DNA from: a virus
Strand: one strand, 5' to 3'
Virus record (IMG/VR): IMGVR_UViG_3300045988_123906
Length of the DNA stretch: 64,000 bases
Shown: positions 5,821 to 39,079 of the stretch, one piece after another
How positions within the stretch are numbered: the first letter of the stretch is position 1
How the letters are laid out: each line of letters opens with the position of its first letter
Made by a program: the position numbers and the translations under genes
Notes under the pieces: generated by a model
What the model saw: only the letters and a program-made list of their open reading frames with translations
What the model was told of the DNA's origin: nothing
Database searches by the model: none

Positions 5821-6201
5821 GTGGAAGAAATCATAATGAAAGCCATTCCTGAGCATGGCGGCGTTTCGATGTCCCGGGCTGAGCAGGAGACCATCATCAC
5901 CATTGGCGCTCTGGATAAGACGGCCGATGTGTGCACCAACGATCCTGTTTACTGGCGCAAGCTTGATGCCATGTGCGAGAAGCATCCTGACGAGTACAAG
6001 CTCACCAAGATCCATCGCACGAAAGACGGGTTGATCCTGTGTAAGTGGTATTCGGTGCCGCGTAAGCTGGTTCGGTTCGGAACGCCGATAGCGCCTCGCG
6101 AACTGACCGATGAACAGCGTGCAGAACTTCGTGAGCGAATGAAAAAGGTACAAGCGGCTCGACAGAATAAGGCCAGCATCGATTCTCAGCCGAATTCATA
6201 A
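5821..6201 (+). CDS. hypothetical protein (126 aa, GTG start; ATG alternative at 5836)
   Basis: aaggag RBS 9 nt before GTG 5821. Basic C-terminal helix (RELTDEQRAELRERMKK). Confidence 0.55.
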   Translation: MEEIIMKAIPEHGGVSMSRAEQETIITIGALDKTADVCTNDPVYWRKLDAMCEKHPDEYKLTKIHRTKDGLILCKWYSVPRKLVRFGTPIAPRELTDEQRAELRERMKKVQAARQNKASIDSQPNS

Positions 6202-6418
6202 AGAGTTTGACTGTATTCTAAACATACATCATGGTTCGGTAATGAAATTACTCTACTGAGATGTGTTAGGTGTTTTTGCCTTGTAATTCTATTAAAGAAA
6301 ACAGCAAGGTTTGAATCAGGAGGTGAATGAGATGAACGCAATGCCCTTCGACGATTCCGCATAGCGCAAGCAGAGTCGCCGCGAAACAGATTGAGATGAA
6401 TAGCAAGTCGAAAGGTTT

Positions 6419-6680
6419 GCACGTTTAGGCCAAGCCGAACGGAACGAATTGTTAGAGTGAGATACCCCCACCCGTGGCTGCCACTGGAGGACCGAGGAGC
6501 TCAGCAGGTGACCCTACAGGGAGGAACTCACGGTACTTACGGTAGAGCCCAAATAGAAATACAGCGATGATGCGTCACTCCGAAATCCCGAACTGCGCTC
6601 GCAGCTCAACCGCAGCTCATCAACGCTGCCGGCTGCAGCGATCGCATGTGAGGCACAGGACTCCACAGATATTTAGATCT
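6419..6680 (+). ncRNA. GC-rich structured module A1 (family of four; function unknown)
   Basis: 5' box GCACGTTTAGGCCAAGCCGAACGGAACGAATTGTTAGA (6419-6456) is identical to 6816-6853. 3' box ATTTAGATC at 6671-6679. The interior is GC-rich and hairpin-dense, with no RBS-led ORF. Confidence 0.45.
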
Positions 6681-6719
6681 CAATTTGAAACAAAAGTACA
6701 TAATCAAATAAGAAAGCGA

Positions 6720-6740
6720 GTTGAAAACTATGTTGAAAAC
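6720..6740 (+). promoter_or_regulatory. two further copies of (T)GTTGAAAAC
   Basis: GTTGAAAAC at 6720-6728 and TGTTGAAAAC at 6731-6740, between modules A1 and A2. Confidence 0.35.
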
Positions 6741-6815
6741 CGGTCCTCCCATGTGAGGAATCTCGTATTTTACGAGCAGATTTGTGATGAATTGTTATCT
6801 GGTTTTACCATGATA

Positions 6816-7058
6816 GCACGTTTAGGCCAAGCCGAACGGAACGAATTGTTAGACTGAGGGGACACCCCCGAGGAAGGCGGAAGACGCGTCGACTGCAGGT
6901 ACCAGACATCGCTGGCCACACCGAACGGTGCCATCAGGGGGTCAAATGAAACTTAAAACACCCCAACCGACGCATCCAACAACCAAATTTGGGCCACAAC
7001 CCCTGGTTCATGAAAGATCTCCATCTCCAGCTAGTAGCTTCAGACAGATTTAGATCAC
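6816..7058 (+). ncRNA. GC-rich structured module A2
   Basis: Same 38-nt 5' box as A1 and 3' box ATTTAGATCAC at 7048-7058. Contains the helix CCCCCGA/TCAGGGGG and the hairpin CACCGaaCGGTG. Confidence 0.45.
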
Positions 7059-7189
7059 AAATCGCCTATATTATAATAATGAAGGTTGTGATAAGAGCAA
7101 CAAATACAAACAAAATGTAATGCTGTCATTTGTGAATATTTTCCAATTGACAACGATACGTTTTTGTGTAATACTTGTTTCAAGCGAAA

Positions 7190-7205
7190 CACACTTTACA
7201 ATACC
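7190..7205 (+). promoter_or_regulatory. CACACTTTACA motif copy 1 (candidate phage promoter)
   Basis: AAACACACTTTACAATACC about 25 nt upstream of the 7229 start. The motif recurs at 12668, 37060 and 49931, and inverted at 35335. Confidence 0.4.
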
Positions 7206-7228
7206 AAACGAAAAGGATGAGGTAAAAA

Positions 7229-8687: not shown

Positions 8688-8766
8688 CCGGGTGTGGCGA
8701 AGTTGGTATCGCGCTAGGTTTGGGACCTAGAGATTTTCGCCCGTTCGAGTCGGGTCACCCGGACCA
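8688..8766 (+). tRNA. tRNA-Pro (anticodon TGG)
   Basis: Hand-folded cloverleaf: acceptor CCGGGTG/CACCCGG, anticodon arm CTAGG-TTTGGGA-CCTAG, T arm GCCCG-TTCGAGT-CGGGT, encoded CCA. The variable region is slightly long (8 nt). Confidence 0.7.
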
Positions 8767-8888
8767 CAGCATAGGGCTTTATCCTTTCTCCCTGTGCAAA
8801 AAAAGCGAAGTTTTTTCTCTTTCACTTTTCCTTTTTCTTCGCTCGTGGCTGAAAATGCCGGGCAGGTACGATAATCCTGCTTTGATAT

Positions 8889-8930
8889 GGAGCTGATGGT
8901 CGTACAACAGTTCGATTCTGTTGGGCTCCA
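8889..8930 (+). ncRNA. armless tRNA-like minihelix (acceptor stem plus T arm only)
   Basis: GGAGCTG-AT-GGTCGTAC-AACAG-TTCGATT-CTGTT-GGGCTCC-A. It has the same GATAT leader as the real tRNAs but no D or anticodon arm. Confidence 0.35.
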
Positions 8931-9319
8931 GCTAGGTTCGATGCAGCGGCGTAGTGTAGTACAAAGCTGCTGGGGTGGCGCAATTCCACCGTGGGTGATC
9001 ATACTCCCCCTCTGACACACCCATAACGCTCTGACCGAAAATAATATCCATGATGCAACGGGAGTAGCTACCCGCCACAGTGGATGTGCATGGCTCTATT
9101 ATGAGTAGGCGAATTTGGCACTGCCTGCGAAAGTGGCATAGATGCTCGGTGCCCAGAGTATCGGAGAGTGATTTAAAAGGGCAGCCTTTGAGGATGGACA
9201 CCATAAGAGACCAATTCGCTTATGTGTTGTATCCGCTGACGCGACTGAGTATTGCGCAAACTTTGTAAGCCGCTTGCTCCTCGCCGATGCCGTTACATGG
9301 TTAAATCCTCCTCTCTTAT

Positions 9320-9410
9320 GCCGGTATCGCTCAGCGGCTAGAGCACTGGGTTTATACCCCTTGGTCCAGATAAGACAGAGGCGCGGGTTCGAGTCCTGCT
9401 ACCGGCACCA
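9320..9410 (+). tRNA. tRNA-like gene, Ile(TAT)-type anticodon loop, with a 16-nt insertion
   Basis: Acceptor GCCGGTA/TACCGGC, canonical D arm (GCTC-AGCGGCTA-GAGC) and T arm (GCGGG-TTCGAGT-CCTGC), encoded CCA. Deleting 9361-9376 restores the anticodon arm CTGGG-TTTATAC-CCCAG. Confidence 0.5.
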
Positions 9411-9443
9411 TTTTTAGTAACATTTTGAAAGAAGGTATGAATC

Positions 9444-9698
9444 ATGGCAAATCTGAATATCAAAGAAATCGTTGAATGGATGATCGAAGAAGCGAAAAAT
9501 AAGGCTTCCGATAGCATCGCAATCATTGATGAAGGAGAAATCGTTAAAAAGTTCGGAGTGGAGTCTGGATGGCTTCAGAGCCATGGTCCAGAAATTTATC
9601 ACGAGTGCGATCAGCACTCAGAAGTTTTGGACTCTTTGATTTACACTGGAAATGATAGAGATTATTGGTCTATTCAGCTTACTATTAACAAGGAGTAA
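9444..9698 (+). CDS. hypothetical protein (84 aa)
   Basis: ORF with gaaagaagg tract upstream. No motif recognised. Confidence 0.55.
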   Translation: MANLNIKEIVEWMIEEAKNKASDSIAIIDEGEIVKKFGVESGWLQSHGPEIYHECDQHSEVLDSLIYTGNDRDYWSIQLTINKE

Positions 9699-9704
9699 AT
9701 CAAA

Positions 9705-10376
9705 ATGGCTGATAAATATCTCAGTATTATCACGAACTTCGGGTGCCACTACAGCTGCCCTGAGTGTATCGTCCGCAATAATAAGCTCAAGATGACGCCG
9801 ACAGGGGAGTATTCTTCTTACGCTCCGCTGTGGCAAGTTCTTCATAACGAATGCAAAGACTGCAACTGGGTATCTGTGTCTGGTGGCGGCGATCCGTTGT
9901 ATCACTGGTGGGAGCATCAGGCATGGTGGCTTGGCTTTTTCGAGATGTGCCAACGCTCTGGACGCAGGACCGAACTGCATACCAGTTACTTCGACGCAGA
10001 AAACAATCACGAGATTATGTTGTTTCCGTTTGGTAAGTTCGACCGTGTTGTATATCACCTGCATACGACAGATGAGATGGACAATGTTTGTCGTCGAGGC
10101 AACGAAATCGTTCGTGTGGTCTTTGTTGTGGACGACGATATGACTGAGGACGAAATCAATGGAATCGCTGATTATGTCGAAACGTCTAACGAGATCGACG
10201 AGCTTACCTTCCGGCAGCGTGTGGACGAGCACTACAAAGAAACTTACCATCTGCACGACTTCCTACTGGCTGGTCATCAGAAACGCTGGTGGTATGTCAC
10301 CCAGTGCGATTACAATACCTACTTCCATAACGGTAAGCTGTATACCAAGTATACTGATATCTTTGATAAGGAGTGA
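9705..10376 (+). CDS. radical SAM protein (possibly an NrdG-like activase)
   Basis: N-terminal CX3CX2C cluster (NFGCHYSCPECIV) and SGGGDP (GGE-like SAM-binding motif). 223 aa. Confidence 0.65.
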   Translation: MADKYLSIITNFGCHYSCPECIVRNNKLKMTPTGEYSSYAPLWQVLHNECKDCNWVSVSGGGDPLYHWWEHQAWWLGFFEMCQRSGRRTELHTSYFDAENNHEIMLFPFGKFDRVVYHLHTTDEMDNVCRRGNEIVRVVFVVDDDMTEDEINGIADYVETSNEIDELTFRQRVDEHYKETYHLHDFLLAGHQKRWWYVTQCDYNTYFHNGKLYTKYTDIFDKE

Positions 10377-10381
10377 TTCAG

Positions 10382-10690
10382 ATGTACATCGTCGTAAGCG
10401 ATTACACCAACGAGAAAGCTGATATCTACAAGTCGGTAAGTATCGATAAAGCATTCAAATCAAGAGACGATGCGATTGCTTTTGCCGCTGTCAGCTTTCA
10501 GTGTTTTCTCAATGGGATGCCTGAAGATGAGGCCGCTCGGTATGAAGATGCAGTGAAAGTTGACACTGAATCATACGCTGATTTTTGCGGATGCGAGTTG
10601 AACCCATATCCTGAGTATGTTATCGGTGCGGCAGTCGGCGATGGTGAAGATAATCACATGTACTACATGGTGTTTGAAGTAGAGGAGTGA
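10382..10690 (+). CDS. hypothetical protein (102 aa)
   Basis: aaggag RBS before ATG 10382. No motif recognised. Confidence 0.55.
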   Translation: MYIVVSDYTNEKADIYKSVSIDKAFKSRDDAIAFAAVSFQCFLNGMPEDEAARYEDAVKVDTESYADFCGCELNPYPEYVIGAAVGDGEDNHMYYMVFEVEE

Positions 10691-10730
10691 CCTGCGCAAG
10701 CAGTGGCGGCTCGGAAAGACGAGCGTATAT

Positions 10731-10810
10731 GGCCCCATGGCGAAATTGGCACACGCGGCAAGTTCAAACCTTGCTTATTGTTCCCGGTTCAAATCCGGGT
10801 GGGGCTACCA
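10731..10810 (+). tRNA. tRNA-Leu-like (anticodon CAA) with shortened variable region
   Basis: Leu-type D arm (TGGCGAAATTGGCACACGC), anticodon arm GCAAG-TTCAAAC-CTTGC, T arm CCCGG-TTCAAAT-CCGGG, A73 and CCA. The variable region is only 8 nt. G1-U72 wobble. Confidence 0.65.
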
Positions 10811-10897
10811 CCGGCTCGATCGAGTCGGGAGCTTATTGGGTGAAACGGTTTGGCAAATCGGAAAGACGGTTGACTGCTGGACAGACAGCTTTGATAT

Positions 10898-10986
10898 GCC
10901 GCTATGGTGAAATCAGGCTAGACACATCGAACTTAAGATTCGACGGTAGTAATATCATCTGGGTTCGAATCCCAGTAGCGGTACCA
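10898..10986 (+). tRNA. tRNA-Leu (anticodon TAA)
   Basis: Class II cloverleaf: anticodon arm TCGAA-CTTAAGA-TTCGA, 16-nt variable arm, T arm CTGGG-TTCGAAT-CCCAG, encoded CCA. Confidence 0.85.
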
Positions 10987-11074
10987 CCCCGAAAGGGGTA
11001 ACATAATAACTCTTGTCAATTATTCTCGGCTCGCTCGAAAGGGTGCAATTGGCCTTGTAAGCCGAGTATCTTAT

Positions 11075-11146
11075 GCGATTGTAGCTCAGTTGGTAGAGCA
11101 GCAGGCTGAATGCGCGTCGGTGGTTCAAGTCCATCCAATCGCACCA
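11075..11146 (+). tRNA. degenerate tRNA-like gene (anticodon arm does not fold)
   Basis: Perfect acceptor (GCGATTG/CAATCGC), D arm (GCTC-AGTTGGTA-GAGC), T arm (GGTGG-TTCAAGT-CCATC) and CCA. Only 19 nt lie between the D and T arms, and I could not form a 5-bp anticodon stem. Confidence 0.4.
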
Positions 11147-11279
11147 GGGTTCCTGTCTTTTTGGTATGTTACTCAGCAGGGACCTTTTACCTCATTCTTG
11201 TTATTCCCGGCTCTTTTAATACGATGCTTCGGTCTATATCGTATCGAAAGCAACAAGGCTTTGTAAGCCGGGTTTATAT

Positions 11280-11354
11280 GCAGCGGTCGTATAACGGTGA
11301 ATGTGCCAGCCTTCCAAGCTGGAGATGTGGGTTCGACTCCCATTCGCTGCTCCA
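11280..11354 (+). tRNA. tRNA-Gly (anticodon TCC)
   Basis: Anticodon arm CCAGC-CTTCCAA-GCTGG, T arm GTGGG-TTCGACT-CCCAT, U73 and CCA. Closely resembles the bacterial glyT-type sequence as I recall it. Confidence 0.85.
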
Positions 11355-11543
11355 TGCCGCAAGGCAAGACAGCTTTGCCCATTAGGTCTCTAACAAAATG
11401 GGGAATAGGTACATGGTGGTAAAAGTACGATCAATAAAATAGCCACGACTTCCTTGTTGCGCCCTAATGTTTCGGATATTGTGGTCCGAAATGGAAGTTG
11501 TCCTGCTTGGAGAATCGGGAGAGCAGGTGTACCTAATTTATAT

Positions 11544-11624
11544 GCGGCTATGGTGGAATAGGCAGACACGCCAAATTTAGGATCTGGTCTTCGGGTGAGG
11601 GTTCAAGTCCCTCTAGCCGCACCA
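11544..11624 (+). tRNA. tRNA-Leu (anticodon TAG)
   Basis: Leu-type D arm, anticodon loop TTTAGGA (one stem mismatch), 9-nt variable region, T arm GAGGG-TTCAAGT-CCCTC, encoded CCA. Confidence 0.7.
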
Positions 11625-13701: not shown

Positions 13702-13887
13702 GGAATTAACGGAGTCTGATCCTGAATCTGTTCGAGCGAATCTCGAATAAAGTCCGAATGTAAATCTGTTCTGGTTACAACAGATAAATAGCATTGCAGC
13801 CGCTGGCAGGCCGGTTAAAGTCTGCCTTATATGTGTCCAGTATCTGGGCTTTTAAATGCAAGATATGAATTTAAGGAGGAAGTAACT

Positions 13888-15363
13888 ATGGCATTCACTG
13901 GTTTGCTGACGAAGCTCGGCTCGAACGAATGCAACGAATTTTTCTCTGACATCAAGAGCAGGAACAAATTCGAAACCGAAGATAACACTGTCCTGACCGT
14001 TCTCCGGGCAGTGATGAACGAGGAGCGGCTGGCGACCTTTACCGTTGATCCCGAGAACAAGGGCATCATGCAGTCTCTGGTGGTCGAGAACGAGATCCGG
14101 CTTCCGGACGATGAGAAGCTGACAGCAGCCTATTACGCTGGTGAGCGTGGTCCGTTCACAAAGATCAAGCTCGGTCTGTATTTCCATTTCATCCCCAACA
14201 AGAAAGCAGCCGATTACATCAAGCAGGTGAAAATGTTCGACGAGGACTATAAGAAGGCGGGCTGGGTTCGTCTTGAGGATGTCTCTCTGTATGTCGATCG
14301 CAGCGGTGACGCTCTGGTCTATCAGAACGAAACCAAGCAGGCGACTATGGTGTTCGCTCCTTCGCCCAAGAGAATCCAGGTCATGCAGATGATGATGAGC
14401 TGTCTGCCTCGTCTGCTTCCGTGGGCATTCAAGGATCACCCGGCAACCAGGGATGAACTCGATCTGCTGAAGATGCTGGCTGAGCAGAAGTATGACAAGT
14501 TCAATGCGGCAATCGACAAGATCTGTGCAGCTTATGACTTCTACGGCAAGAAAGTCGAAAGCATGCTCAAGGGATTCTGCAGTCAGAACTTCACCCGCTC
14601 GATCCACGATCAGGAAGAACGTGTCCGCCGGGCAGAGAACAACGTCAACGATTATATGAGCAGCGCCCGCAATGCCATGAAGCAGGTGGATGAAGAGCAG
14701 ATGAAGCTTCTGGTGCTCCGGAATCGTGCCTGCAACTCTGGAGACGATGAGAAGGAGCTGGTCGATTTCTTCAAGGCGAACAAATCTCTTATCGCTCTGG
14801 ATAAGTCCGGCAATCAGCTGTGGGTCGGCGTGAACTGCTATCTGAATGACTACAACGAAGATATCTTTAAGCAGTATGTCGAAAAGCAGGATAAGATGTC
14901 CAGCTACATCTACGAGGAGAGCCCGTATGATATGGATCTCACCAAGAAGCTGTTCCTGGCTATCTGGAAAGAGCACCGGTTCAATCTGCGTGTCTACTGC
15001 GAGTGGATTGTCTATGATGACTGCCGCGTCGAAGCCGTCAGAAGCACTAACATGAATCACCGAGAAGACCTGATGAAGAATCGTTTTCCTCAGCCGCATA
15101 TCGACCGGTTTACCTGTTACGGCGGCTATCGCGGTATGCTTCAGGATCTGGCTCTCCGCCGTGATTACATCGGCGTTTTGTCTACTCTGGTGACTTCTTC
15201 TTCCTATATCAACTGGACGGATTCTACGGTCGTCGAATGGATGATGGAAAAGCTGTTCGGCGATTATAGTAATCGGAAGTGTCTGGAAGATAAGGATGGT
15301 AATCTCTACACCATCAAACAGGTGGTTGAGATCCTGGAAAACGAAAGCAGAGAAACGGCATAA
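13888..15363 (+). CDS. large protein of unknown family (491 aa); C-terminal region possibly E2-like
   Basis: aaggagg RBS 8 nt before ATG 13888, in frame with tracked ORF 13831-15363. Central coiled-coil. The C-terminal FPQPHIDRFTCYGG loosely recalls the HPN..C loop of E2 folds. Confidence 0.6.
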   Translation: MAFTGLLTKLGSNECNEFFSDIKSRNKFETEDNTVLTVLRAVMNEERLATFTVDPENKGIMQSLVVENEIRLPDDEKLTAAYYAGERGPFTKIKLGLYFHFIPNKKAADYIKQVKMFDEDYKKAGWVRLEDVSLYVDRSGDALVYQNETKQATMVFAPSPKRIQVMQMMMSCLPRLLPWAFKDHPATRDELDLLKMLAEQKYDKFNAAIDKICAAYDFYGKKVESMLKGFCSQNFTRSIHDQEERVRRAENNVNDYMSSARNAMKQVDEEQMKLLVLRNRACNSGDDEKELVDFFKANKSLIALDKSGNQLWVGVNCYLNDYNEDIFKQYVEKQDKMSSYIYEESPYDMDLTKKLFLAIWKEHRFNLRVYCEWIVYDDCRVEAVRSTNMNHREDLMKNRFPQPHIDRFTCYGGYRGMLQDLALRRDYIGVLSTLVTSSSYINWTDSTVVEWMMEKLFGDYSNRKCLEDKDGNLYTIKQVVEILENESRETA

Positions 15364-15376
15364 GGAGGTTTGAAGT

Positions 15377-16354
15377 ATGCAGCCGGTTAAGATGAATGAC
15401 GAACTGATCCAGGGAATTTTGCAGGAGTTCTATGCACAGGCTTCTGCGTTGGGTAATCTGCAGGCGGATAAGTTCTCCTTTAACAAGAATTTTTCCAAGC
15501 CTGCCAAGGACGCAGTCGAGGTGAATTTCACTCTGGAAGCTTATCACGAGATGTGTGCCCTGATCGATCACTTCAGTACCGAGGTCGCCTGGCACGGTCT
15601 GGTGAATCGCATTGATAAGACTCACTTCCAAATCACCAAGATCCTGGTTTATCCGCAGCAGGTCACGGGCGCAACAGTGAATACGGACCAGGAAAAGTAT
15701 ACGACCTGGCTGTATGAGCTGGACGATGAATCCTTTAATACGCTGCGGTTCCAGGGCCACAGTCATGTGAACATGAGCACTTCTCCCAGCGGTGTGGATA
15801 TGCAGAATCAGTGGGATCTCATTGATACTCTGAGCTCTGAGGATTACTACGTCTTTATGATCTGGAACAAGCGGCGGGAGTATAACGTCCGTGTTGTGGA
15901 CATGGCGGACAATGTCATCTACAGCGGCGATGATGTCAAGGTGACGATTGGAGAGGCCGATACGAAAGGGTTTCTCGAACAGGCGGAAGCGCTCGTCCAA
16001 AAGCCGGTCACAACCACATACAGCGGCTACAACAATGGCTACAGCGGCAACTACAATGGTGCAGCTTACTCCGGCAACTACAGCGCGGGTACAGCAGCTT
16101 ATCAGGGAGGCGCGTTCGTTGGTAACACAAGCTCCGCAGCCGCGTCCACGAAAACAAAAGCAGAAACGAAACCGGCAGCCACGACGAACCCGGCGCTGAA
16201 AACTGTCACGGGTGGAGCCGCCCCTAAGATCGATTCAGCCAAGAGCAAGGGAAGCGAATCCAATCTGATGAAGTATTATCAGGAGAATCCGAACGACCTG
16301 ATGAACAATTGGAATTCGAGCTGCTATCCCTACGCTGACGCATTCCAGGACTAA
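15377..16354 (+). CDS. JAB/MPN+ (JAMM) metalloprotease with G/Y/N/S-rich low-complexity tail
   Basis: HSHVNMSTSPSGVD matches HxHx7Sx2D exactly, with an upstream Glu (TEVAWHG). The C-terminal ~110 aa is low complexity (YSGYNNGYSGNYNGAAYSGNYSAG...). Confidence 0.8.
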   Translation: MQPVKMNDELIQGILQEFYAQASALGNLQADKFSFNKNFSKPAKDAVEVNFTLEAYHEMCALIDHFSTEVAWHGLVNRIDKTHFQITKILVYPQQVTGATVNTDQEKYTTWLYELDDESFNTLRFQGHSHVNMSTSPSGVDMQNQWDLIDTLSSEDYYVFMIWNKRREYNVRVVDMADNVIYSGDDVKVTIGEADTKGFLEQAEALVQKPVTTTYSGYNNGYSGNYNGAAYSGNYSAGTAAYQGGAFVGNTSSAAASTKTKAETKPAATTNPALKTVTGGAAPKIDSAKSKGSESNLMKYYQENPNDLMNNWNSSCYPYADAFQD

Positions 16355-16368
16355 GAAAGGAAACAACA

Positions 16369-17049
16369 ATGGATCTGAGCAAAATCGAAATGGTGTTTGA
16401 CCCTGCGTCTGTTAAGGGTCGCATTCATATCATCGGCTGTGGTTCGGTCGGCTCTACTGTGGCTGAACTGCTGGCACGATACGGTCTGACCAAGTTCACT
16501 CTGTGGGATATGGACTTTGTCGAACCCAAGAATATCGTCAACCAGATGTTCTTCCAGCAGGATATCGCCCATCCCAAGGTGGAAGCTGTGGGGAACATTC
16601 TGTGCAATGTGAATCCTGATATCAAAGAGGATCTGGTTCTGATGCCCAATGGCTGGCAGGGCGAAACCGTCAAGGGTTATGTGTTCCTGGCCGTGGACAG
16701 CATCGAGATCCGCAAGCAGTTCCTGGAGAAGAATAAGTACAATCCTGAGCTGCTCGGTGTGTTCGATATCCGCACTGGCCTGTATGATGCACAGTGCTGG
16801 TCGGCCGATTGGAAGGATCGCAAGCAGATCGACAATCTGAAGAACTCCATGAACTTCACTCACGAGGAAGCAAAGGTAAGTACGCCGGTGTCTGCATGTG
16901 GCATTGTTCAGGGTGTTGCACCGACCGTTCGTTTCATCTGCTGTCTGGCGGTTACGAACTTTATCAATTTCGTGGGAGGCAACCAGCTGAAGAAGCAGAT
17001 CGTTGCAACCCCGTTCATTCTGGGTGAAGAGAGCGTCATGGCGTTCTGA
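16369..17049 (+). CDS. minimal E1-like (ThiF/MoeB-family) adenylation protein
   Basis: Rossmann GxGxxG (IIGCGSVGS) followed by WDMDFVEPKNIVNQ...HPKVEA, the ThiF/E1 nucleotide-binding signature. Only 226 aa. Confidence 0.7.
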   Translation: MDLSKIEMVFDPASVKGRIHIIGCGSVGSTVAELLARYGLTKFTLWDMDFVEPKNIVNQMFFQQDIAHPKVEAVGNILCNVNPDIKEDLVLMPNGWQGETVKGYVFLAVDSIEIRKQFLEKNKYNPELLGVFDIRTGLYDAQCWSADWKDRKQIDNLKNSMNFTHEEAKVSTPVSACGIVQGVAPTVRFICCLAVTNFINFVGGNQLKKQIVATPFILGEESVMAF

Positions 17050-17097
17050 TAAAATCGTAAATAAAAAAATCGTGATGAATAGTTGTTTTTATAAACA

Positions 17098-17329
17098 GCG
17101 CACTTAGGCCAAGCCAAGTGTATCGAATTGTTAAGAAGAGGGGGTCCTCCCCCTGTGGCATCAACATTGCAAAACTAAACGCGTGCCGCCGGATGACGGT
17201 GCTACCACAGGGTTCGAAACGATCTTCCTGGGTCACCCGAATGCGGTTATATAGCCAATTTCAGCATCCAATCATGATCGGGACCTCCTACAGCATGCAT
17301 TATAGCCTCAAGAAACCCATTTAGATCAC
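17098..17329 (+). ncRNA. GC-rich structured module B, immediately upstream of the RT
   Basis: Diverged 5' box GCGCACTTAGGCCAAGCCAAGTGTATCGAATTGTTAAGA and 3' box ATTTAGATCAC (17319-17329), 24 nt before the RT start. Contains hairpin GGGGGtcctCCCCC and the 8-bp helix CCCTGTGG/CCACAGGG. Confidence 0.5.
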
Positions 17330-17352
17330 GATGAAATCATAAAGGAGAAACA

Positions 17353-18585
17353 ATGTACATTACATATCTGAATCCTCCTAAGACTCGGCAGATCACTTTT
17401 GATGAGATCCTTGCCGGTGTCCAGAATGTAGAAGCACTGCACTATGGCGGCAGCAACACATCTACAATGACCGTGTGCCGCAATGACTTAACCGCCAAAC
17501 TTCGCGCTATCACAAATGTTCCTGAGATGATCGAGAAGTTGGTGGACTACAACGTGAAATATGCGACGCTTGAATCCAGCGATATCCCGAGTCACTATTC
17601 TCACTTTGAGATTCCAAAGAAATCTGGTGGCTGGCGACCCATTGATGCGCCAGATGAAACTCTTTCTGATGCACTGATCGAGCTGCGGGAACTGCTGAAG
17701 AGCTTTATGATCGCAGATTATCACACGAATGCTTTCGCATATATTCCCAATCGCAGCTTTATCGATGCGGTCCGTAAGCATCAGGCAGGTCACAATAAAA
17801 CCGTCGTTGATGAGGCGACCGGCATGAAAAAGGTCGTCAATTATCAGAATCATTGGGCGGTCAAGTTCGACTTCCATGGTTTCTTTCCCAGTACGACACC
17901 GGATTTTCTGCTCGGCATGATGAGTGTGATCTATCCATTTGCTCTGATCATGCGGGATGCACATGGCCGAGATGAACTGGCAAAGGCGGTCAACCTGTGC
18001 TTTCTTCGCAACGGCCTGCCGCAGGGAACTCCCATCAGTCCGTGGCTTACCAATGTGATGATGATTCCGTTTGACCACTGTATCACTCGCAAGCTGTGCT
18101 ATGGCTACAAAGCAAAGGACGGCATCGATCGCGAGTTTACTTTCACACGATATGCAGATGATATCCTCATCAGCTGTTATCATCACTTTGACCCGATGGA
18201 AATTCAGCAGATCATCATTGATGCGTTGAACTTCTTTCATGCGCCGTTTACTCTGAACGAAACGAAAACGCATTACGGCAACCGGCACTCCAGCAAGAAC
18301 TGGTGTCTCGGCTTGATGTGGAATAAGGACAATCAGATCACGGTTGGCTGGCGCAATCTTAAAATGTTCCGTTCGGCTATGACGAACTATATCGATACAA
18401 AGCAGCATGGCAGGACCTGGGAGCTGGAAGATCTGCAAAAGTTCAATGGCAAGCTCAACTATTATCACATGGTCGAGCCTGAGGTGATCGACGAGCTGGT
18501 TCGTCGTTACAATGCAAAGTTCGGCACTGATATTATTGCGATGCTCAAAGAAGATCTTCGTCCCAAAGAGGGCGTTGTTGCATAA
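17353..18585 (+). CDS. reverse transcriptase, retron/Abi/UG-like
   Basis: RT motifs in order: NRSFIDAVRKH, FDFHGFFPS, LPQGTPISPWLTNV, RYADDILIS (YADD box), NETKTH. 410 aa with no endonuclease or maturase tail seen. Confidence 0.85.
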   Translation: MYITYLNPPKTRQITFDEILAGVQNVEALHYGGSNTSTMTVCRNDLTAKLRAITNVPEMIEKLVDYNVKYATLESSDIPSHYSHFEIPKKSGGWRPIDAPDETLSDALIELRELLKSFMIADYHTNAFAYIPNRSFIDAVRKHQAGHNKTVVDEATGMKKVVNYQNHWAVKFDFHGFFPSTTPDFLLGMMSVIYPFALIMRDAHGRDELAKAVNLCFLRNGLPQGTPISPWLTNVMMIPFDHCITRKLCYGYKAKDGIDREFTFTRYADDILISCYHHFDPMEIQQIIIDALNFFHAPFTLNETKTHYGNRHSSKNWCLGLMWNKDNQITVGWRNLKMFRSAMTNYIDTKQHGRTWELEDLQKFNGKLNYYHMVEPEVIDELVRRYNAKFGTDIIAMLKEDLRPKEGVVA

Positions 18586-18617
18586 AAAATGGAGACATAC
18601 ACAAGGAGTGATGATCT

Positions 18618-18965
18618 ATGATTGAAATTATGTGCCGGGATGGAAAGGTCCCATCGAAGGAGCTCGAAAAGGTCGCGGATATGATCTACTATTCCACGGG
18701 CATCGAAACAGAGGTGGTCTACGAAGAGGATCGGAGAGCCCTAGTGTTCTGGGGCCCTGAGGATGTCAAAGAGATCGTGGAAAGTTTGAATCTGAAATCG
18801 ATCAACACAGACGATACCAATTTCTGCGATACCATTGTGGCCGCCGCAGAGCCGCGCATTCACCAGGCAATGCTGGAAGCCGGCAGAGATGTCCTGTTTG
18901 ATGAAGTCTGTGAAACGGCTGCATCCATGGGCGAACAAATCGAATTCGATGAGCCCAATCAGTAA
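18618..18965 (+). CDS. hypothetical acidic protein (115 aa), co-bracketed with the RT
   Basis: aaggag RBS upstream. No motif recognised. Confidence 0.55.
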   Translation: MIEIMCRDGKVPSKELEKVADMIYYSTGIETEVVYEEDRRALVFWGPEDVKEIVESLNLKSINTDDTNFCDTIVAAAEPRIHQAMLEAGRDVLFDEVCETAASMGEQIEFDEPNQ

Positions 18966-19006
18966 TCAGTAAACAAAAAATCACTTTGCATATCGTTCCA
19001 AAAGAG

Positions 19007-19217
19007 CGAGCATCACGCCCAAGGCGGATGTTAAGAAGAATACCCCAGCAATCGGCCGCTGCACTCCGCCATAGGCCCCTGATCGTGCAGCTGGCCTCAA
19101 ACAATCCTTGTCAAGAAACACTCGTCCTTCGATCCGGGACGAAAGTCACGCGCCAGGTCGCGTGACAGAAGTCCCTGATCGTGCGTCCTCCCGTTTCCAG
19201 AGCATCGGATTTAGAAA
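19007..19217 (+). ncRNA. GC-rich structured module C (diverged), downstream of the RT cassette
   Basis: 5' box remnant CACGCCCAAGGCGGATGTTAAGAAGA and 3' box ATTTAGA (19209-19215). Perfect 8-bp hairpin GTCACGCG/CGCGTGAC. Internal direct repeat CCCTGATCGTGC x2. Confidence 0.4.
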
Positions 19218-19250
19218 GTGATTTTGATAAAAAGAAAATGAGGTAGAAAT

Positions 19251-19517
19251 ATGGAATTGATGTATAAGCCAGGCGATAAAGTAATGATTCGCCCGGATCT
19301 GAACTGCCGTGAAATTTATTGCATGAGATCAGGTCGCCACAATGGGGACTATACCTACAATGTGGTTGATCAAATGGTAGATCAGGCTGGAAAGGTTTTT
19401 ACGATTCAGGGTCCTCGCCACGGAGGAGCTGGATATACTCTGGAAGAGTCTGATTATGGCTGGACCGACGAGATGTTTATTTCTATCAATGAGTGTTGCT
19501 GTGATAGCATTCTGTGA
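19251..19517 (+). CDS. CxC[DE]S[LI]L-tail family protein, copy 1 (88 aa)
   Basis: YKPGDKVMIRPDL..YCMRSG..WTDEMF..NECCCDSIL-COOH. Confidence 0.65.
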   Translation: MELMYKPGDKVMIRPDLNCREIYCMRSGRHNGDYTYNVVDQMVDQAGKVFTIQGPRHGGAGYTLEESDYGWTDEMFISINECCCDSIL

Positions 19518-19525
19518 GGTGAACT

Positions 19526-19801
19526 ATGAAATACAGATACGATGTCGGTGACGCAGTGGTCGTAAAGCGAGATCTCAGAAAGAATTGCAGCTACTTTATG
19601 ATGTTCGGCCCCAATCCCAAAACATACAACACTGTTGTCGACGAAATGAAAGAGCTCGAAGGCAAGACCGTTCATATCGCAGAACATATTGATGGTCAAT
19701 ACTTCATTGAAGAAGACAATAAATCATATGCCTGGACGGATCAGATGTTCCTGACGCAGGACAAATACAGCGCTGCTTGTGTTTGCGAAAGTTTACTATG
19801 A
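19526..19801 (+). CDS. CxC[DE]S[LI]L-tail family protein, copy 2 (91 aa)
   Basis: YDVGDAVVVKRDL..WTDQMF..AACVCESLL-COOH. Confidence 0.65.
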   Translation: MKYRYDVGDAVVVKRDLRKNCSYFMMFGPNPKTYNTVVDEMKELEGKTVHIAEHIDGQYFIEEDNKSYAWTDQMFLTQDKYSAACVCESLL

Positions 19802-20045: not shown

Positions 20046-20867
20046 ATGGCAGAACCGGCACGTAAGCGCAAGGATCGCGTAGTTCAGTTCCCGCAACAGC
20101 CTGGTTCCGAAGCTCACATCACCATGAGCGAAGCCGAGCTGAAGGAAATGATTTGGGACATCGTGGCTGCCGCTCGCAAGAAAAAGCGCAAGACAAAGCC
20201 AACCAACAGCCTTTATACAAAGGATGGCCGCATCAAACCTTCGCCTGCTGATCCGATTCGTTCCAAAGAGGATTTCCAGAAACTGGCGAATTATCTCGCT
20301 TCCAACGGCGACCCCAAGTTTCGTCTACGCAACAAGGCGATTTTCGTGTTCGGGTGCAGTCTGGGTATTCGTTGTGGCGATCTTCTCAGTCTGAAAACGG
20401 CCGATGTTTACGAACAGGATGGCAGTGTGAAAGAGCATGTCGAACTGATCGAAGAAAAGACCCGTAAGCGCAATGTGTGCAAGATCCCTAAGATGGCAGC
20501 TGACATTCTTGAGGATTATTTCGATGAACAGAATTTCGAGATTAGTCAATCTGATTATCTGTTTCGCAGTCGCAAGGGTGGTCCTCTGACAGTGCGCGGA
20601 TTTTATCGGATCTTGAAAGAAGCAGGGAAAGCGTGTGAGCTAGATATCGATCTGTCCACTCATACCATGCGCAAAACCTATGCAATGGCTGCACTTCAGA
20701 CAGCGAAAAAAGCTGGTACATCTGGGCAAACGATCGAGATGCTTCAAGAAAAGTTTAAGCATAGCAGCCAGCGTGTCACGATGCATTATGTCAAGGCAGA
20801 CCAGGATAAGATGGACGAAATGTCTGATCGTGTGTCGGACTGGTTCGATGATGGAGGAACGGAATGA
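20046..20867 (+). CDS. tyrosine recombinase (phage integrase family)
   Basis: Catalytic signature present: R in LGIRCGDL, HxxR in HTMRKT, and H..Y in HSSQRVTMHY. 273 aa. Confidence 0.8.
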   Translation: MAEPARKRKDRVVQFPQQPGSEAHITMSEAELKEMIWDIVAAARKKKRKTKPTNSLYTKDGRIKPSPADPIRSKEDFQKLANYLASNGDPKFRLRNKAIFVFGCSLGIRCGDLLSLKTADVYEQDGSVKEHVELIEEKTRKRNVCKIPKMAADILEDYFDEQNFEISQSDYLFRSRKGGPLTVRGFYRILKEAGKACELDIDLSTHTMRKTYAMAALQTAKKAGTSGQTIEMLQEKFKHSSQRVTMHYVKADQDKMDEMSDRVSDWFDDGGTE

Positions 20868-21139
20868 CTGATTACATGTATCACCCAGGCGACAGAGTCC
20901 GCGTTCGACTTGATCTTTCGGAACATGAAGAATATAAAATGTTGTCTGGCGAAAATAAAGGTCAACGCTGGGTGATTTTTGACTGGATGAAAAAATACGC
21001 AGGACAAGAGATCGTCATTCAAAAGATCGCACAAACTAGTGGTGTTTACAGAGCACAAGGAATCGATGGCTGCATCTGGGCTGATGAGATGTTTGAGCCG
21101 CTTGTCGTGGACGAGTGCGTTTGTGATTCATTGCTGTAA
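20864..21139 (+). CDS. CxC[DE]S[LI]L-tail family protein, copy 3 (91 aa)
   Basis: YHPGDRVRVRLDL..WADEMF..DECVCDSLL-COOH. ATGA overlap with the recombinase stop. Confidence 0.65.
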   Translation: MTDYMYHPGDRVRVRLDLSEHEEYKMLSGENKGQRWVIFDWMKKYAGQEIVIQKIAQTSGVYRAQGIDGCIWADEMFEPLVVDECVCDSLL

Positions 21140-22594: not shown

Positions 22595-23698
22595 ATGAAA
22601 GTTGTTGAAAGCGCAAGCAATCTGTTCCTGTATGGCGACGATATGAAGGCGTATGACAAGATCCCGGCGGGTACCTATGATATCCACTGTTCTGAGATGA
22701 CCGGTTTCTATCTGTCCCGCCGCCCTGATATGGTCATCAACGAAAAGGTGTATGGTGTCCAGAGCAGCAAGGTTGCCAAAGTGCTGAATTCGTTCAAAGT
22801 GTTCAACCGCAACCTGGGTGTCATCCTCAGCGGCAACAAAGGCATCGGCAAATCTCTGATCGCTAAGATGATTGCAATCGAGGCCGTCAAGCAGGGCTAT
22901 CCTGTCATTCTGGCTAACCGCTATATCGGCGGTATCGCCAATTTCATTGAATCCATCGATCAGGAAGTTATGATCCTGTTTGACGAGTTTGATAAAACCT
23001 TCAAGTCCCGGGATAATGAAAATCCGCAGGATACGATGCTGAGTCTGTTCGATGGCACCAGCGCGGGCAAAAAGCTCTTCGTTGTCACCTGTAACCAGCT
23101 CAATGGTCTGAACGATTATCTGGTCAACCGTCCCGGCCGCTTCCACTATCACTTCCGCTTCGATTACCCGGGCGCTGATGAGGTCGAAACCTACCTCAAG
23201 GATAAGCTCGAAGAGAAGTATTACGATCAGATCCCAGCTGTGGTCGATTTTTCTGGCAAGATCGATCTGAACTATGACTGCCTGCGGTCTATCGCCTTTG
23301 AATTGAATCTGGGCACTCCATTCGCAGAGGCCATCAAGGATCTGAATATCATCAATATGAACGAGACCAGCTACAAGCTCACTGTTATCTTCAAGGATGG
23401 TTACCGTGCGTCCAGCACCAAGCGTTTTGATATGTTCAATGGTGCACAGCGTATCTGTTTTGATGTCAAGCTGAAAGATGGCTACTGGCCTGATTTCTAT
23501 ATCAATACTGAGGATATCCAGTATAACCCCGCCAACGGTGAGCAGTTCATTGATGGAAAGAAGATTGATGTGGATAATCCGTATTCCAAGAGTGATGACG
23601 ATGAAAAGGATCGTTATGAAGCTTTTGAAAAGGACAACGGTGTGGTCAAAGTCATCATCTCTCGTACTCGTGAAAGAGACATTCACTACATGGTCTAA
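22595..23698 (+). CDS. AAA+ ATPase
   Basis: Walker A GNKGIGKS and Walker B MILFDEFD, with a C-terminal domain of unknown type. 367 aa. Confidence 0.75.
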   Translation: MKVVESASNLFLYGDDMKAYDKIPAGTYDIHCSEMTGFYLSRRPDMVINEKVYGVQSSKVAKVLNSFKVFNRNLGVILSGNKGIGKSLIAKMIAIEAVKQGYPVILANRYIGGIANFIESIDQEVMILFDEFDKTFKSRDNENPQDTMLSLFDGTSAGKKLFVVTCNQLNGLNDYLVNRPGRFHYHFRFDYPGADEVETYLKDKLEEKYYDQIPAVVDFSGKIDLNYDCLRSIAFELNLGTPFAEAIKDLNIINMNETSYKLTVIFKDGYRASSTKRFDMFNGAQRICFDVKLKDGYWPDFYINTEDIQYNPANGEQFIDGKKIDVDNPYSKSDDDEKDRYEAFEKDNGVVKVIISRTRERDIHYMV

Positions 23699-23709
23699 GG
23701 AGGCTCAAT

Positions 23710-24537
23710 ATGGTTAAAGCAAATCATTATAAAATCAGTTCTTTTCCTGACGGTACTCCGCTGATCAAGAAGGATCTGACCATCAATTATCTCAACGTGA
23801 TCAGTATCGTCTGGACGTTTGAATCTATGGCCGAGCTTCCAACGGTCATTATGATCGCAAAGGATGCAAAGGATAACGGTGCAGAAGTTGAGCTGTTCAT
23901 GCCGTATATCCCGAACGCTCGTATGGATCGCGCCTATCACGACGAAGATGTGTTCACCCTCAAGTGGTTCGCTGACGAGATCAATCGGTGCGGATTCAGC
24001 TGCGTTACCGTGTTTGACCCTCACAGTGATGTGGCCCCGGCATTGATCAATCGGTGCGAAGTACATACTCCGATTCGTGAAATCTGTCAGGTAATCGAGG
24101 AGAGCAAGCCAGATGTGATCTATTTTCCGGATACCGGCGCAATGAAACGATATGAAGGGACTGTTCACTGGGCACTGGATCGAGCAAAGTGCAGTGCCTA
24201 TATCATCCATGGCGATAAAAAGCGGGACTGGGCAACGGGCAAAATTCTCGGTTTGGATGTTGTTGGTGAAGTGAAGCCTGGTGAAAAGGTTTTGATGATC
24301 GATGATATCTGTTCTTACGGTGGCACTATGTTCTATTCGGCCAAGAAGCTGAAGGAACTGGGTGCTGGTGATATCGATATGTATGTCAGCCACTGCGAAA
24401 ACAGCATTCTGGATTCTGAGCGTGGCCATCTGTTTGATGATCCAGAACTGATTCACAAGGTTTATACCACAGACAGTATCTTCACCGGCCATCACGACAA
24501 GATCACTGTTTTAGAGCGTCATTGGGGCGAGGACTGA
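23710..24537 (+). CDS. ribose-phosphate pyrophosphokinase-like protein (Prs family; possibly ADPR-PP synthetase of a NARP1-type pathway)
   Basis: PRPP-binding loop KVLMIDDICSYGGT. 275 aa. Adjacent to the NAMPT-like gene. Confidence 0.7.
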   Translation: MVKANHYKISSFPDGTPLIKKDLTINYLNVISIVWTFESMAELPTVIMIAKDAKDNGAEVELFMPYIPNARMDRAYHDEDVFTLKWFADEINRCGFSCVTVFDPHSDVAPALINRCEVHTPIREICQVIEESKPDVIYFPDTGAMKRYEGTVHWALDRAKCSAYIIHGDKKRDWATGKILGLDVVGEVKPGEKVLMIDDICSYGGTMFYSAKKLKELGAGDIDMYVSHCENSILDSERGHLFDDPELIHKVYTTDSIFTGHHDKITVLERHWGED

Positions 24538-37704: not shown

Positions 37705-37779
37705 GCTGGAGTGGCGCAATGGTAGCGCAGGAAATTTGTAATTTTCAGGTTGCAGGTTCAAGCCCTGTCTCCAGCACCA
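37705..37779 (+). tRNA. tRNA-Thr (anticodon TGT)
   Basis: GCTGGAG/CTCCAGC acceptor, anticodon arm GGAAA-TTTGTAA-TTTTC, T arm GCAGG-TTCAAGC-CCTGT, encoded CCA. Confidence 0.8.
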
Positions 37780-37832
37780 TTAGAACAGCGGGCAACCGCA
37801 TCAAAGATTATGTATTACAAAGGAGAATAATT

Positions 37833-38474: not shown

Positions 38475-38659
38475 TATTTAATCAGCGAAGCATATTCACT
38501 GTCTATCGAAAACGACAAACTGTAATCGTTCGTTCTTTGCTGATGGTAGCCTGCTTGAACGAAATCAAATAATAAAAAAGCTAATAACCATTCATATAAA
38601 AGCTGGCCTCATAAGCCGACAAGATGAAATCAAGTAAAATATTTGGTAATACTTGAATT

Positions 38660-38730
38660 TTTGGATTTGTCAAGAGGTTAAGACGCAAGCCTATAAGCTT
38701 GAAACGATGGTTCGAATCCATTATCCAAAA
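38660..38730 (+). tRNA. tRNA-like gene with abnormal 6-nt (or 8-nt) anticodon loop; no encoded CCA
   Basis: Acceptor TTTGGAT/ATCCAAA (7 bp), T arm GATGG-TTCGAAT-CCATT, anticodon stem CAAGC/GCTTG enclosing CTATAA (38691-38696). Confidence 0.4.
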
Positions 38731-39005: not shown

Positions 39006-39079
39006 GGTTCGGTAGCTCAGAAGGATAGAGCACTAGCCTGTCACGCTAGGGGTCGTGGGTTCAATCCCCATCCGAATCG
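39006..39079 (+). tRNA. tRNA-Asp (anticodon GTC)
   Basis: Anticodon arm CTAGC-CTGTCAC-GCTAG, T arm GTGGG-TTCAATC-CCCAT, G73. No encoded CCA. Confidence 0.85.

Follow-up and report, generated by a model that had tools for sequence, protein, structure and literature searches.

The 64-kb stretch of phage DNA analysed here (64,000 nucleotides, hereafter the window) probably carries a multi-template retron-like system, in which one reverse transcriptase (RT) of the retron clade would be served by four cognate RNAs. Retrons are bacterial anti-phage systems composed of one RT, one non-coding RNA (ncRNA) and one effector. What appears to be the same molecular design is found here inside a very common family of human-gut phages, with several cognate RNAs per enzyme and no known effector. 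Full-text literature searches yielded no description of a phage retron with several ncRNAs, and none of the retrons described in the literature searched uses several dispersed ncRNAs. The features of the putative system are listed below, the E-values of the modules being those of their covariance-model matches.

6387..6687, + strand: module A1, candidate retron-like ncRNA (E 5.2e-13)
6779..7063, + strand: module A2, in tandem with A1 (E 4.3e-10)
13831..17049, + strand: conserved block of the three genes that follow (510-aa protein, JAMM/JAB-like, ThiF/E1)
13831-15363, + strand: 510-aa protein
15377-16354, + strand: JAMM/JAB-like protein (weak JAB matches in PADLOC)
16369-17049, + strand: ThiF/E1 adenylation-domain protein (ThiF in Pfam, 3.3e-19; E1-E2 matches in PADLOC)
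17069..17332, + strand: module B, directly upstream of the RT (E 1.6e-15)
17353-18585, + strand: RT, 410 aa, catalytic YADD, apparently of the retron clade
18618-18965, + strand: 115-aa ORF, between the RT and module C
18977..19225, + strand: module C (E 4.7e-10)

The Reverse Transcriptase

All the motifs quoted for the RT in an earlier, first-pass annotation of this DNA (FDFHGFFPS, LPQGTPISPWLTN and RYADDILIS) are present at 17353-18585, and with its YADD the enzyme looks active. It is the only RT of the window, where a search for a second one returned none. The protein matches RVT_1 of Pfam (1.5e-15) and its best PADLOC matches are retron RTs, of types II-A (2.5e-37), III-A and I-A. Among the NCBIfam models, retron_St85_RT scores 142 bits, group II 73 and Drt2 39, the last against a cut-off of 390; the St85 family model (NF038233, 142.3 bits) has a curated cut-off of 235, and the RT stays under the curated cut-offs of every named retron family. 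The top matches of a phmmer search of the PDB were the RTs of retrons Ec83, Ec78, Ec67 and Ec86. When the AF2 model of the protein (pLDDT 89) was submitted to Foldseek, the top 12 matches were all retron RTs, with target TM-scores of 0.64-0.78 for RT-only chains. Compared with the solved retron RTs, the enzyme has an N-terminal extension of ~75 aa.

In retron RTs the H is the most conserved residue of the region X motif NAXXH, and the G that of the region Y triplet VTG in RT7 (PMC7736814). The NAXXH region aligns here as DAVRKH, H143 being invariant in 33 relatives and the N and A replaced, and the VTG triplet aligns as CLG, with L319 and G320 invariant in 33 family members and the V and T not kept; both retron motifs are degenerate in this RT. 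By HMM, PDB sequence search and predicted fold, the RT appears closest to the retron/retron-like clade.

The RNA Modules

The four modules have a common build, consisting of a terminal helix formed by inverted repeats (a1/a2), two hairpins, a purine-rich, single-stranded box and a GC-rich, structured interior of ~170-215 nt that differs in each of them. All lie on the + strand, which is that of the RT, with A1 and A2 located 10 kb from it. Their parts are as follows.

A1: a1 6387-6397; predicted priming G 6398; hairpins 1 and 2 ~6403-6441; box to ~6457; interior ~6458-6670; opposing G 6676; a2 6677-6687
A2: a1 6779-6788; predicted priming G 6789; opposing G 7053; a2 7054-7063
B: a1 17069-17076; predicted priming G 17077; hairpin 1 17082-17099; hairpin 2 17100-17121; purine-rich box 17122-17138; interior ~17139-17318; ATTTAG 17319-17324; opposing G 17324; a2 17325-17332
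C: a1 18977-18987; predicted priming G 18988; hairpins 1 and 2 18993-19031; box TTAAGAAGAATAC; interior with a long stem-loop; opposing G 19214; a2 19215-19225

The first-pass annotation had described modules on both sides of the RT, a layout that stands, and two more lie at ~6.4-7.1 kb. Its borders for B (17098-17329) and C (19007-19217) had to be corrected, the real starts lying ~30 nt further upstream and the ends 3-8 nt later; the terminal inverted repeat, the G after the repeat and the first hairpin had been missed. The 5' box ending in ..GAATTGTTA(A)GA (GATGTTAAGA in C) and the 3' ATTTAGA are present as described, and the interiors are indeed GC-rich (0.53-0.60, vs 0.458 for the window). 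A covariance model of the 5' core recovers exactly four copies in the 64 kb (E 1.6e-15 to 4.7e-10, the next match having E 2.1), these four being the model's own training sequences, and with filters off it detects no further copy in the window. A relaxed scan for end complementarity was unspecific, with a null of 6.5 matches per window.

No conserved frame or strand was found in the modules, their open frames are no longer than in shuffled sequences and, in the window modules, each frame is interrupted by at least one stop. This frame analysis and the shuffles led to the rejection of small protein genes, as well as of a 'neo'-type ORF without stops. In agreement with the earlier statement that the modules fit no known ncRNA family, only tRNAs were matched in the window at Rfam gathering scores, and Rfam 15 returned nothing credible over any module at E<=10. 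That the modules are non-coding and constitute one family of structured RNAs absent from Rfam is a well-supported conclusion from sequence analysis.

Conservation of the RNA Structure

The hairpin-rich nature attributed to the modules was confirmed by folding, the z-scores of the minimum free energy (MFE) being -2.3 for B, -5.7 for C, -3.3 for A2 and only -0.6 for A1. The MFE folds of all four window modules present the same closing helix and the same two hairpins. The centroid fold of C is identical to its MFE fold, and in A1 both folds are closed by a1/a2 and include both hairpins.

Both a1/a2 and hairpins 1 and 2 covary in the modules of related phages. The a1/a2 helices have 8-12 bp across modules (8-11 bp in the window). 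In 25 modules, 92.8% of the a1/a2 cells are paired, vs 33-48% with the partner slid, double changes occur at 10/10 pairs and the covariation score is 0.879, vs 0.209 for shuffled alignments (0/500 shuffles as high), statistics that are biased because several modules of distant lineages were picked by their end complementarity and G, the window modules and their orthologues having been defined first by sequence similarity. The G that follows a1 and the G that precedes a2 (G13 and G28) are invariant in the 25 modules, forming in the window the opposing pairs 6398/6676, 6789/7053, 17077/17324 and 18988/19214. Covariation of a1/a2 is also seen among orthologues of C alone (ATCACTTT, ATCATTTT and TCTCTTTT). 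For hairpins 1 and 2, 93.2% of the cells are paired, vs 29-44% when slid, with double changes in 13/15 pairs; almost all of 26 modules have two adjacent hairpins after the G, and hairpin 2 was recovered in seven lineages.

As for the interiors, those of B, A1 and A2 fold into multi-branched structures, consensus folding being weak (B interior), and the long interior stem of C differs in sequence between lineages. The existence of interior cassettes common to paralogous modules was considered and rejected, there being no BLAST similarity between interiors. Two arguments of the first-pass annotation were lost at this point. The helix CCCTGTGG/CCACAGGG, put forward as compensatory proof of RNA structure, is paired in only 60% of the cells of 36 B orthologues, which equals the shuffled control, and shows no covariation; the core ACGGTGCYAYCA..GGGT, said to be shared by B and A2, sits in a stretch that is variable among B orthologues.

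The hallmarks of retron ncRNAs are inverted repeats that pair the ends, two opposing G, of which that after a1 is the branching G, one to three msr-like hairpins and a structured template region (PMC7736814, Mestre et al. 2020). The modules present paired a1/a2 ends, the two opposing G and two msr-like hairpins. They depart from retrons in that the ncRNA is not a single one contiguous with the RT, as there are four modules per RT with A1 and A2 10 kb off, and in the lack of a tripartite organization with an effector of known type, the block of E1, JAB and 510-aa genes being the only conserved neighbour. The original proposal, a retron-type RT accompanied by structured RNA modules where an msr-msd would lie, holds on stronger evidence, that is, the retron ncRNA hallmarks and an RT nearest to retron RTs.

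The modules could instead be templates for non-retron cDNA synthesis, as carried out by DRT2, DRT9 and other UG systems, giving rise to unbranched, concatemeric or homopolymeric cDNA that would perhaps encode a new gene. A structured ncRNA upstream of an RT does resemble DRT2, and the DRT2 and DRT9 RTs are also among the fold matches of the enzyme (E ~1e-9). However, retron RTs outrank DRT/UG RTs both by sequence and by fold (39 bits for Drt2 vs 142 for St85), no module has a stop-free frame on either strand and the a1-G/G-a2 geometry is that of retron priming, which makes this mode of synthesis quite improbable.

Distribution and Variation among Related Phages

The 90%-identity cluster of the RT has 1429 members and its homologues at E<=1e-10 amount to 3195, the RT and the modules belonging to a very common human-gut phage family. 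GenBank phage records contain no cultured relative, the only relative there being the unannotated MT835544. Identification of the host through prophage copies was attempted and abandoned, as close relatives of the RT were found only in two contigs of one MAG bin (98% and 64% identity), in all likelihood phage contigs that were included in the bin.

Down to 41% RT identity, each of the relatives has 2-5 modules near the RT. In every RT-bearing locus examined, modules occur within ~2.5 kb of the RT, directly upstream or, in locus L119, which has no module in that position, directly downstream. Module positions are orthologous across lineages; for instance, the lineage with 65% RT identity has a single A module, orthologous and placed between the same flanking genes. 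The tandem spacing of A1 and A2 (~390 nt) is seen again in at least 12 IMG/VR contigs, and modules in tandem without genes between them are found both in A1-A2 and in modules m3-m5 of L116.

Within one phage, all modules have an identical apical part of hairpin 2, which varies from one RT lineage to the next. In the phages with 65% RT identity, whose version of hairpin 2 is CUGCCGGAUGACCGACAG, all three modules contain CUGCCGGNUGACCGACAG, the distant A-type copy included, and other common apical motifs are present in L116, L117, L119 and L067. This pattern of hairpin 2 is consistent with one RT recognising all modules, and equally with another lineage-specific RNA-binding protein or with concerted evolution.

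This bears on the possibility that the modules are structured RNAs with a role at the RNA level, never reverse-transcribed, their adjacency to the RT being incidental. As such they might help to process or stabilize long early transcripts, the terminal helix then being a site of the RNase III type, or serve as leaders to which a lineage-specific phage protein binds. Most modules are in fact 20-170 nt upstream of a + strand gene (B/RT, C/88-aa ORF, A2/466-aa ORF), consensus scans, which are uninformative in this regard, turned up no promoter or terminator signal of their own, A1 and A2 are 10 kb from the RT and a lineage-specific hairpin 2 would suit any RNA-binding protein. Nevertheless, the terminal helix is flanked on both sides by an invariant G, a retron signature with no obvious role in processing, the tandem modules devoid of intervening genes argue against one leader per gene, and none of the RT-bearing loci examined lacks modules within ~2.5 kb of its RT. 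A purely RNA-level role is considered unlikely.

Variation is concentrated inside the modules. In 55 distinct orthologues of B the ends are invariant, the interior having a pi of 0.11-0.25 vs 0.02-0.04 in the flanks, and diversity also peaks in the interior of A1 (pi 0.15-0.26). Three interiors, those of A1, A2 and B, are diversity hotspots, with allele replacement. Their variation has no adenine bias (23% of the A columns vary, vs 28-32% for the other bases), and no copy of any module interior exists elsewhere in the 64-kb window, which covers part of the genome. Mutagenesis of the DGR type was discarded, given the absence of adenine bias and of a matching target within the window.

Hypervariable interiors, together with the inverted repeats that bound each module and the proximity of a tyrosine recombinase gene to C (0.8 kb), could also be expected of DNA-level elements, namely miniature transposons with terminal inverted repeats, tyrosine-recombinase sites or a DGR-like template/target pair. 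Yet the inverted repeats differ between copies, meaning that they are not a shared transposase site, and change by compensatory substitutions that keep the pairing. Moreover, the modules occupy orthologous positions in different lineages, their copies all share one strand, the variation lacks adenine bias and the interiors have no matches elsewhere in the window. A miniature inverted-repeat transposable element in particular was rejected, as the repeats differ per copy and covary, and the locations are orthologous. The DNA-element explanation is already largely refuted and is given very little credence here.

Neighbouring Genes

The gene order 510-aa protein, JAB, ThiF and RT is kept at 42-64% RT identity, the homology of the block in relatives being detected at 22% identity (E 4e-22) and at 36% identity (E 2e-50, with the HSHx7Sx2D motif). 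The idea that the RT and the E1/JAB block form one island gains support from this order being kept down to 42-48% RT identity, and by conserved adjacency the RT may be associated with the E1, JAB and 510-aa genes.

The 115-aa ORF reported beside the RT is present at 18618-18965. It has no Pfam, PADLOC, NCBIfam or PHROG match and only 25 homologues, vs 3195 for the RT, and is absent beside the RT in L116, L117 and L119; its AF2 model (pLDDT 63) is too poor for a fold search. It was considered and rejected as an effector, having no family matches and so few homologues, and a role as core partner is improbable. Searches with Pfam, PADLOC and PHROG detected no known family of retron effectors beside the RT, and without a recognised adjacent effector the system cannot be classed as a canonical tripartite retron. 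As candidates for type III-like effectors, the AAA/STAND NTPase and PRTase-like genes at 22.6-24.5 kb were evaluated and dismissed, since they have no PADLOC retron-effector matches and their presence near the RT is not conserved. The tyrosine recombinase gene close to module C is situated 0.8 kb downstream of it.

Proposed Mode of Action and Its Significance

In the multi-template retron-like model, by analogy with known retrons, the RT would bind the msr-like hairpin-2 region of each RNA, also in the two copies that lie 10 kb from its gene. Synthesis would be primed from the 2'-OH of the G that follows a1 (6398, 6789, 17077 and 18988) and the interior would be copied starting at the A before the opposing G, in which case each cDNA would begin with 5'-TAAAT. 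The predicted outcome is that four distinct msDNAs would be made in the course of infection, an msDNA being a branched molecule in which, in retrons, the DNA is joined to the RNA through a 2'-5' linkage. More weakly, it may be inferred that the products act in conflict, either of phage against host defence or of phage against phage, because the A1, A2 and B interiors are diversity hotspots with allele replacement, there is no adjacent toxin-type effector and only the E1/JAB-type block is conserved.

A bolder version, tentative and somewhat doubtful, views the retron-clade RT of large gut phages as a multi-product DNA factory. The enzyme would recognise a hairpin common to three to five RNAs scattered over the genome and make a different msDNA from each. 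Those segments of the msDNAs that evolve fast and swap alleles would be directed at the defences of the host or at competing phages, acting for instance as decoys or by binding specific sequences, perhaps together with the co-inherited E1, JAB and 510-aa proteins in place of a toxin effector. If this were true, retrons would turn from a purely bacterial defence into a phage weapon.

Should the RNAs be reverse-transcribed, phages themselves would deploy msDNA, and there would be a natural case of a retron RT acting in trans on several templates, of direct relevance to multiplexed retron genome editing; the hypervariable parts of the templates would then mark an unexplored front of phage-host or phage-phage conflict. 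Even without reverse transcription, the modules represent a new and well-supported structured RNA family absent from Rfam.

Comparison with Known Systems

HMM matches, PDB sequence search and fold all place the RT nearest to those of the type I-A and II-A retrons (Ec78/Eco7, Ec83, Ec86/Eco1 and St85/Sen2). As in these systems, a putative ncRNA with a1/a2 repeats, the opposing G pair, msr-like hairpins and a structured template is located upstream of the RT on the same strand. In contrast to them, a single RT has four ncRNAs, of which two lie at a distance of 10 kb, effectors of the ATPase/HNH, NDT or any other known type are missing, and the system resides in a phage of ~150 kb rather than in a bacterial chromosome or defence island. 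Furthermore, the RT is ~100 aa longer, falls under the family cut-offs and has NAXXH and VTG reduced to the conserved H and G, and the interiors (~170-215 nt) are longer and more branched than a typical msd, which is a single long stem-loop.

Lytic jumbo phages of Staphylococcus encode a retron-like RT, MarsHill gp206, of 501 aa with an N-terminal domain of ~200 aa (bioRxiv 10.1101/2020.12.14.422802). Both RTs are phage-encoded and retron-like, have a long non-coding region upstream (1.2 kb in MarsHill) and lack a linked effector, but their architectures differ and no ncRNA was defined for gp206 (bioRxiv 10.1101/2020.12.14.422802). MarsHill gp206 is not among the tblastn matches of the RT at E<=1e-10.

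DRT2, where an ncRNA template of a UG-class RT yields a new gene, likewise has an RT beside a structured template RNA; unlike in DRT2, the RT here is of another clade, the template has no stop-free frame and the priming geometry is of the retron type. To our knowledge, no multi-ncRNA arrangement exists for cargo retrons of prophages or satellites, of which those of the Pseudomonas Pf phages PfAC01 and PfAC04 presumably serve host defence. These Pf phages also bring retron-type RTs into phage records; the elements are small (11-12 kb) and their RTs share only 24-26% identity with the enzyme described here.

Four related RNA modules and a single retron-type reverse transcriptase

The best-supported reading of this locus is that of a retron-like system carried by a phage, with one reverse transcriptase (RT) that would serve several template RNAs. 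The first-pass annotation had placed non-coding modules on both sides of the RT; module B is similar to two more sites at ~6.4 and 6.8 kb, the A1 and A2 of that annotation. This arrangement was borne out, with the exception of the module bounds. Each of the four copies carries, just upstream of a conserved G-A/C-A-T, 8-11 nt that are reverse-complementary to those just downstream of a conserved ATTTAG, and because of this complementarity at both ends the true modules are longer, including terminal inverted repeats (a1 and a2) from whose register the bounds were corrected.

Features of the locus (a1 / a2 in brackets)
6387-6687, + strand, module A1 (CAGATTGAGAT / ATCTCAATTTG)
6779-7063, + strand, module A2 (GATTTGTGAT / ATCACAAATC)
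17069-17332, + strand, module B (ATCGTGAT / ATCACGAT)
17353-18585, + strand, RT, 410-aa ORF with catalytic YADD
18618-18965, 115-aa ORF, after the RT
18977-19225, + strand, module C (AAAATCACTTT / AAAGTGATTTT)

The four modules constitute one RNA family. A strict scan of the window (TTAG, then 8 nt whose complement plus G stands 120-450 nt upstream) returned exactly the four modules, all on the + strand, against a null mean of 0.88, four matches being reached in 4/300 shuffles. A covariance model of the 5' core also retrieved only these four, which are its training set (E 1.6e-15 to 4.7e-10), the next best window match having an E of 2.1. Independent MFE folds closed each module with the a1/a2 helix, inside which came a pair of neighbouring hairpins, an unpaired purine-rich box and a branched interior, the interiors being GC-richer than the window (0.53-0.60 vs 0.458). 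The modules are non-coding for protein, their longest open frame shifting strand and frame among close relatives and not exceeding shuffles in length. No Rfam family describes them.

The RT motifs quoted in the first-pass annotation, YADD included, and the 115-aa ORF, which occurs only in close relatives, were both found. The window encodes this one RT, a retron-type enzyme according to several lines of comparison. Almost all of its best 25 PADLOC matches were retron RT models (top, II-A, 2.5e-37), and NCBIfam scored retron St85 at 142 bits, group II at 73 and Drt2 at 39, each below its own cut-off. Its PDB phmmer matches were retrons Ec83, Ec78, Ec67 and Ec86, and the top 12 fold matches of its AF2 model (pLDDT 89) were retron RTs, ranking above group II, DGR, DRT2 and DRT9 RTs. 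At the positions of the retron motifs NAXXH and VTG the RT has DAVRKH and CLG; the most strongly conserved residue of each motif (H and G, respectively) is invariant across the RT family. An identical protein is deposited in GenBank as DAX17476.1 ("hypothetical protein, Caudoviricetes sp."); 1429 members make up its 90% cluster, 3195 proteins match it at E<=1e-10, and no cultured phage carrying it was found.

Selection on module structure

Comparison of module sequences shows that the terminal helix and hairpins 1 and 2 are under selection as RNA structure. In an alignment of 25 modules anchored on two G residues, 92.8% of terminal-helix cells were paired (33-48% with the partner slid), both sides had changed in 10/10 pairs and the covariation score was 0.879 vs 0.209 shuffled (0/500 shuffles as high), values inflated by the choice of some distant-lineage modules by end complementarity; for the window modules and their orthologues, definition by sequence came first. 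Only two positions were invariant, the G residues that follow a1 and precede a2. For hairpins 1 and 2, 93.2% of cells were paired in 11 window-lineage modules (29-44% when slid), with double changes in 13/15 pairs, and hairpin 2 was the consensus structure recovered over seven lineages. The compensatory helix originally proposed, CCCTGTGG/CCACAGGG, did not hold up, its 60% pairing equalling that of shuffles.

Conservation in related phages

Relatives of the RT with 64-98% identity occur in 65 IMG/VR contigs of roughly 35-150 kb, to which a 41% relative on contig L067 is added. Orthologues of B and C were present in nearly all contigs with RT relatives, and the tandem A1-A2 pair recurred in at least 12. 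The lineage with 65% RT identity has a third module at the position orthologous to A1/A2, with homologous flanking genes. Two to five similarly built modules stand around each RT of L067, L116, L117 and L119 (41-48% identity), including tandem copies without an intervening gene. In contig L121, the RT homologue as publicly annotated (6001-7326, 441 aa) begins within the upstream module B, and the N-terminal extension that this gives it is probably artefactual.

All modules of one genome share the hairpin 2 apex, which differs between RT lineages; recognition by one genome-encoded protein would be expected to give this pattern.

Hairpin 2 apex by lineage
Window lineage: GGCCAAGCC or GCCCAAGGC
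65% lineage: CCGGAUGACCG (3/3 modules, RT-distant copy included)
L116: UGAUGUUAU
L117: GUAUUGUAAAUCG
L119 and L067: CUGUCAG or CUGUUAG

Variation of the module interiors

Nucleotide diversity across 40 phages whose RTs are about 97% identical was 0.11-0.25 in the B interior vs 0.02-0.04 in flanking genes, with whole segments swapped in some phages (e.g., L012, L020, L040). The A1 and A2 interiors follow the same pattern and that of C is less variable. The variation has no adenine bias, the interiors of different modules are mutually unrelated, and none has matches elsewhere in the window. In the 65% (L050) lineage, the A-type module occurs as two wholly unrelated interior alleles flanked by the same 5' and 3' ends in phages that otherwise resemble each other (examples in L069, - strand, and L087, 561-868), as if the putative template had been replaced as a cassette. 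Further diversity peaks (pi 0.10-0.17) lie at 19400-19800 and 20700-21050, in small ORFs downstream of C in closely related phages.

Comparison with described retrons

As defined by Mestre et al. 2020 (PMC7736814), retron ncRNAs have terminal repeats that pair, two G residues opposite each other, an msr region with one to three hairpins and an msd region that folds into a long stem-loop. The modules share the first three features; the long msd stem-loop is clear in C but not in B, A1 and A2, whose interiors fold as multi-branched structures. Retrons have been described with a single contiguous ncRNA, unlike the four found here, and no known retron effector is present. In the proposed system, the modules would prime and template cDNA synthesis, with msDNA as the predicted product, and a role in conflict may be envisaged. 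No description of such a system was found in the literature searched, the nearest precedent being an uncharacterised retron-like RT of lytic Staphylococcus jumbo phages with a long upstream non-coding region.

Neighbouring genes and tRNA arrays

Upstream of the RT, genes for a 510-aa, a JAMM/JAB and a ThiF/E1 protein follow one another in this order, an arrangement retained down to 42-48% RT identity, with varying downstream genes. Across 42-98% RT identity, no neighbour other than this block (13831-17049; JAMM/JAB with HSHx7Sx2D, short ThiF/E1) is inherited together with the RT; the 510-aa protein matched neither a family nor a PDB entry. At 20046-20867, 0.8 kb downstream of C, there is a small tyrosine recombinase (Phage_integrase, 9e-18), and in L121 a tyrosine recombinase stands directly 3' of a C-type module. 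At 22595-24537, an AAA/STAND-like NTPase adjoins a weak phosphoribosyltransferase-like protein; this pair was rejected as a retron effector, having no PADLOC retron-effector match and not being kept near the RT in L116. Downstream of A2, a 466-aa Bro-N/Ant-like protein (7229-8629) has a mosaic pattern when lineages are compared, with 43-89% identity along most of the protein and about 92% at its C-terminus.

Two arrays (8688-11624 and 37705-46311) hold 16-17 tRNA genes. A tRNA-like gene at 38659-38731 was detected by Rfam (52.5 bits) and by ARAGORN, the latter giving an anomalous two-base anticodon without amino-acid assignment. The arrays include a tRNA with a CUA anticodon (amber suppressor, 40753-40828), TAG ends 0/36 long + strand ORFs (21 TAA, 15 TGA) and TAG read-through lengthens four ORFs, which suggests that this phage avoids or recodes TAG.
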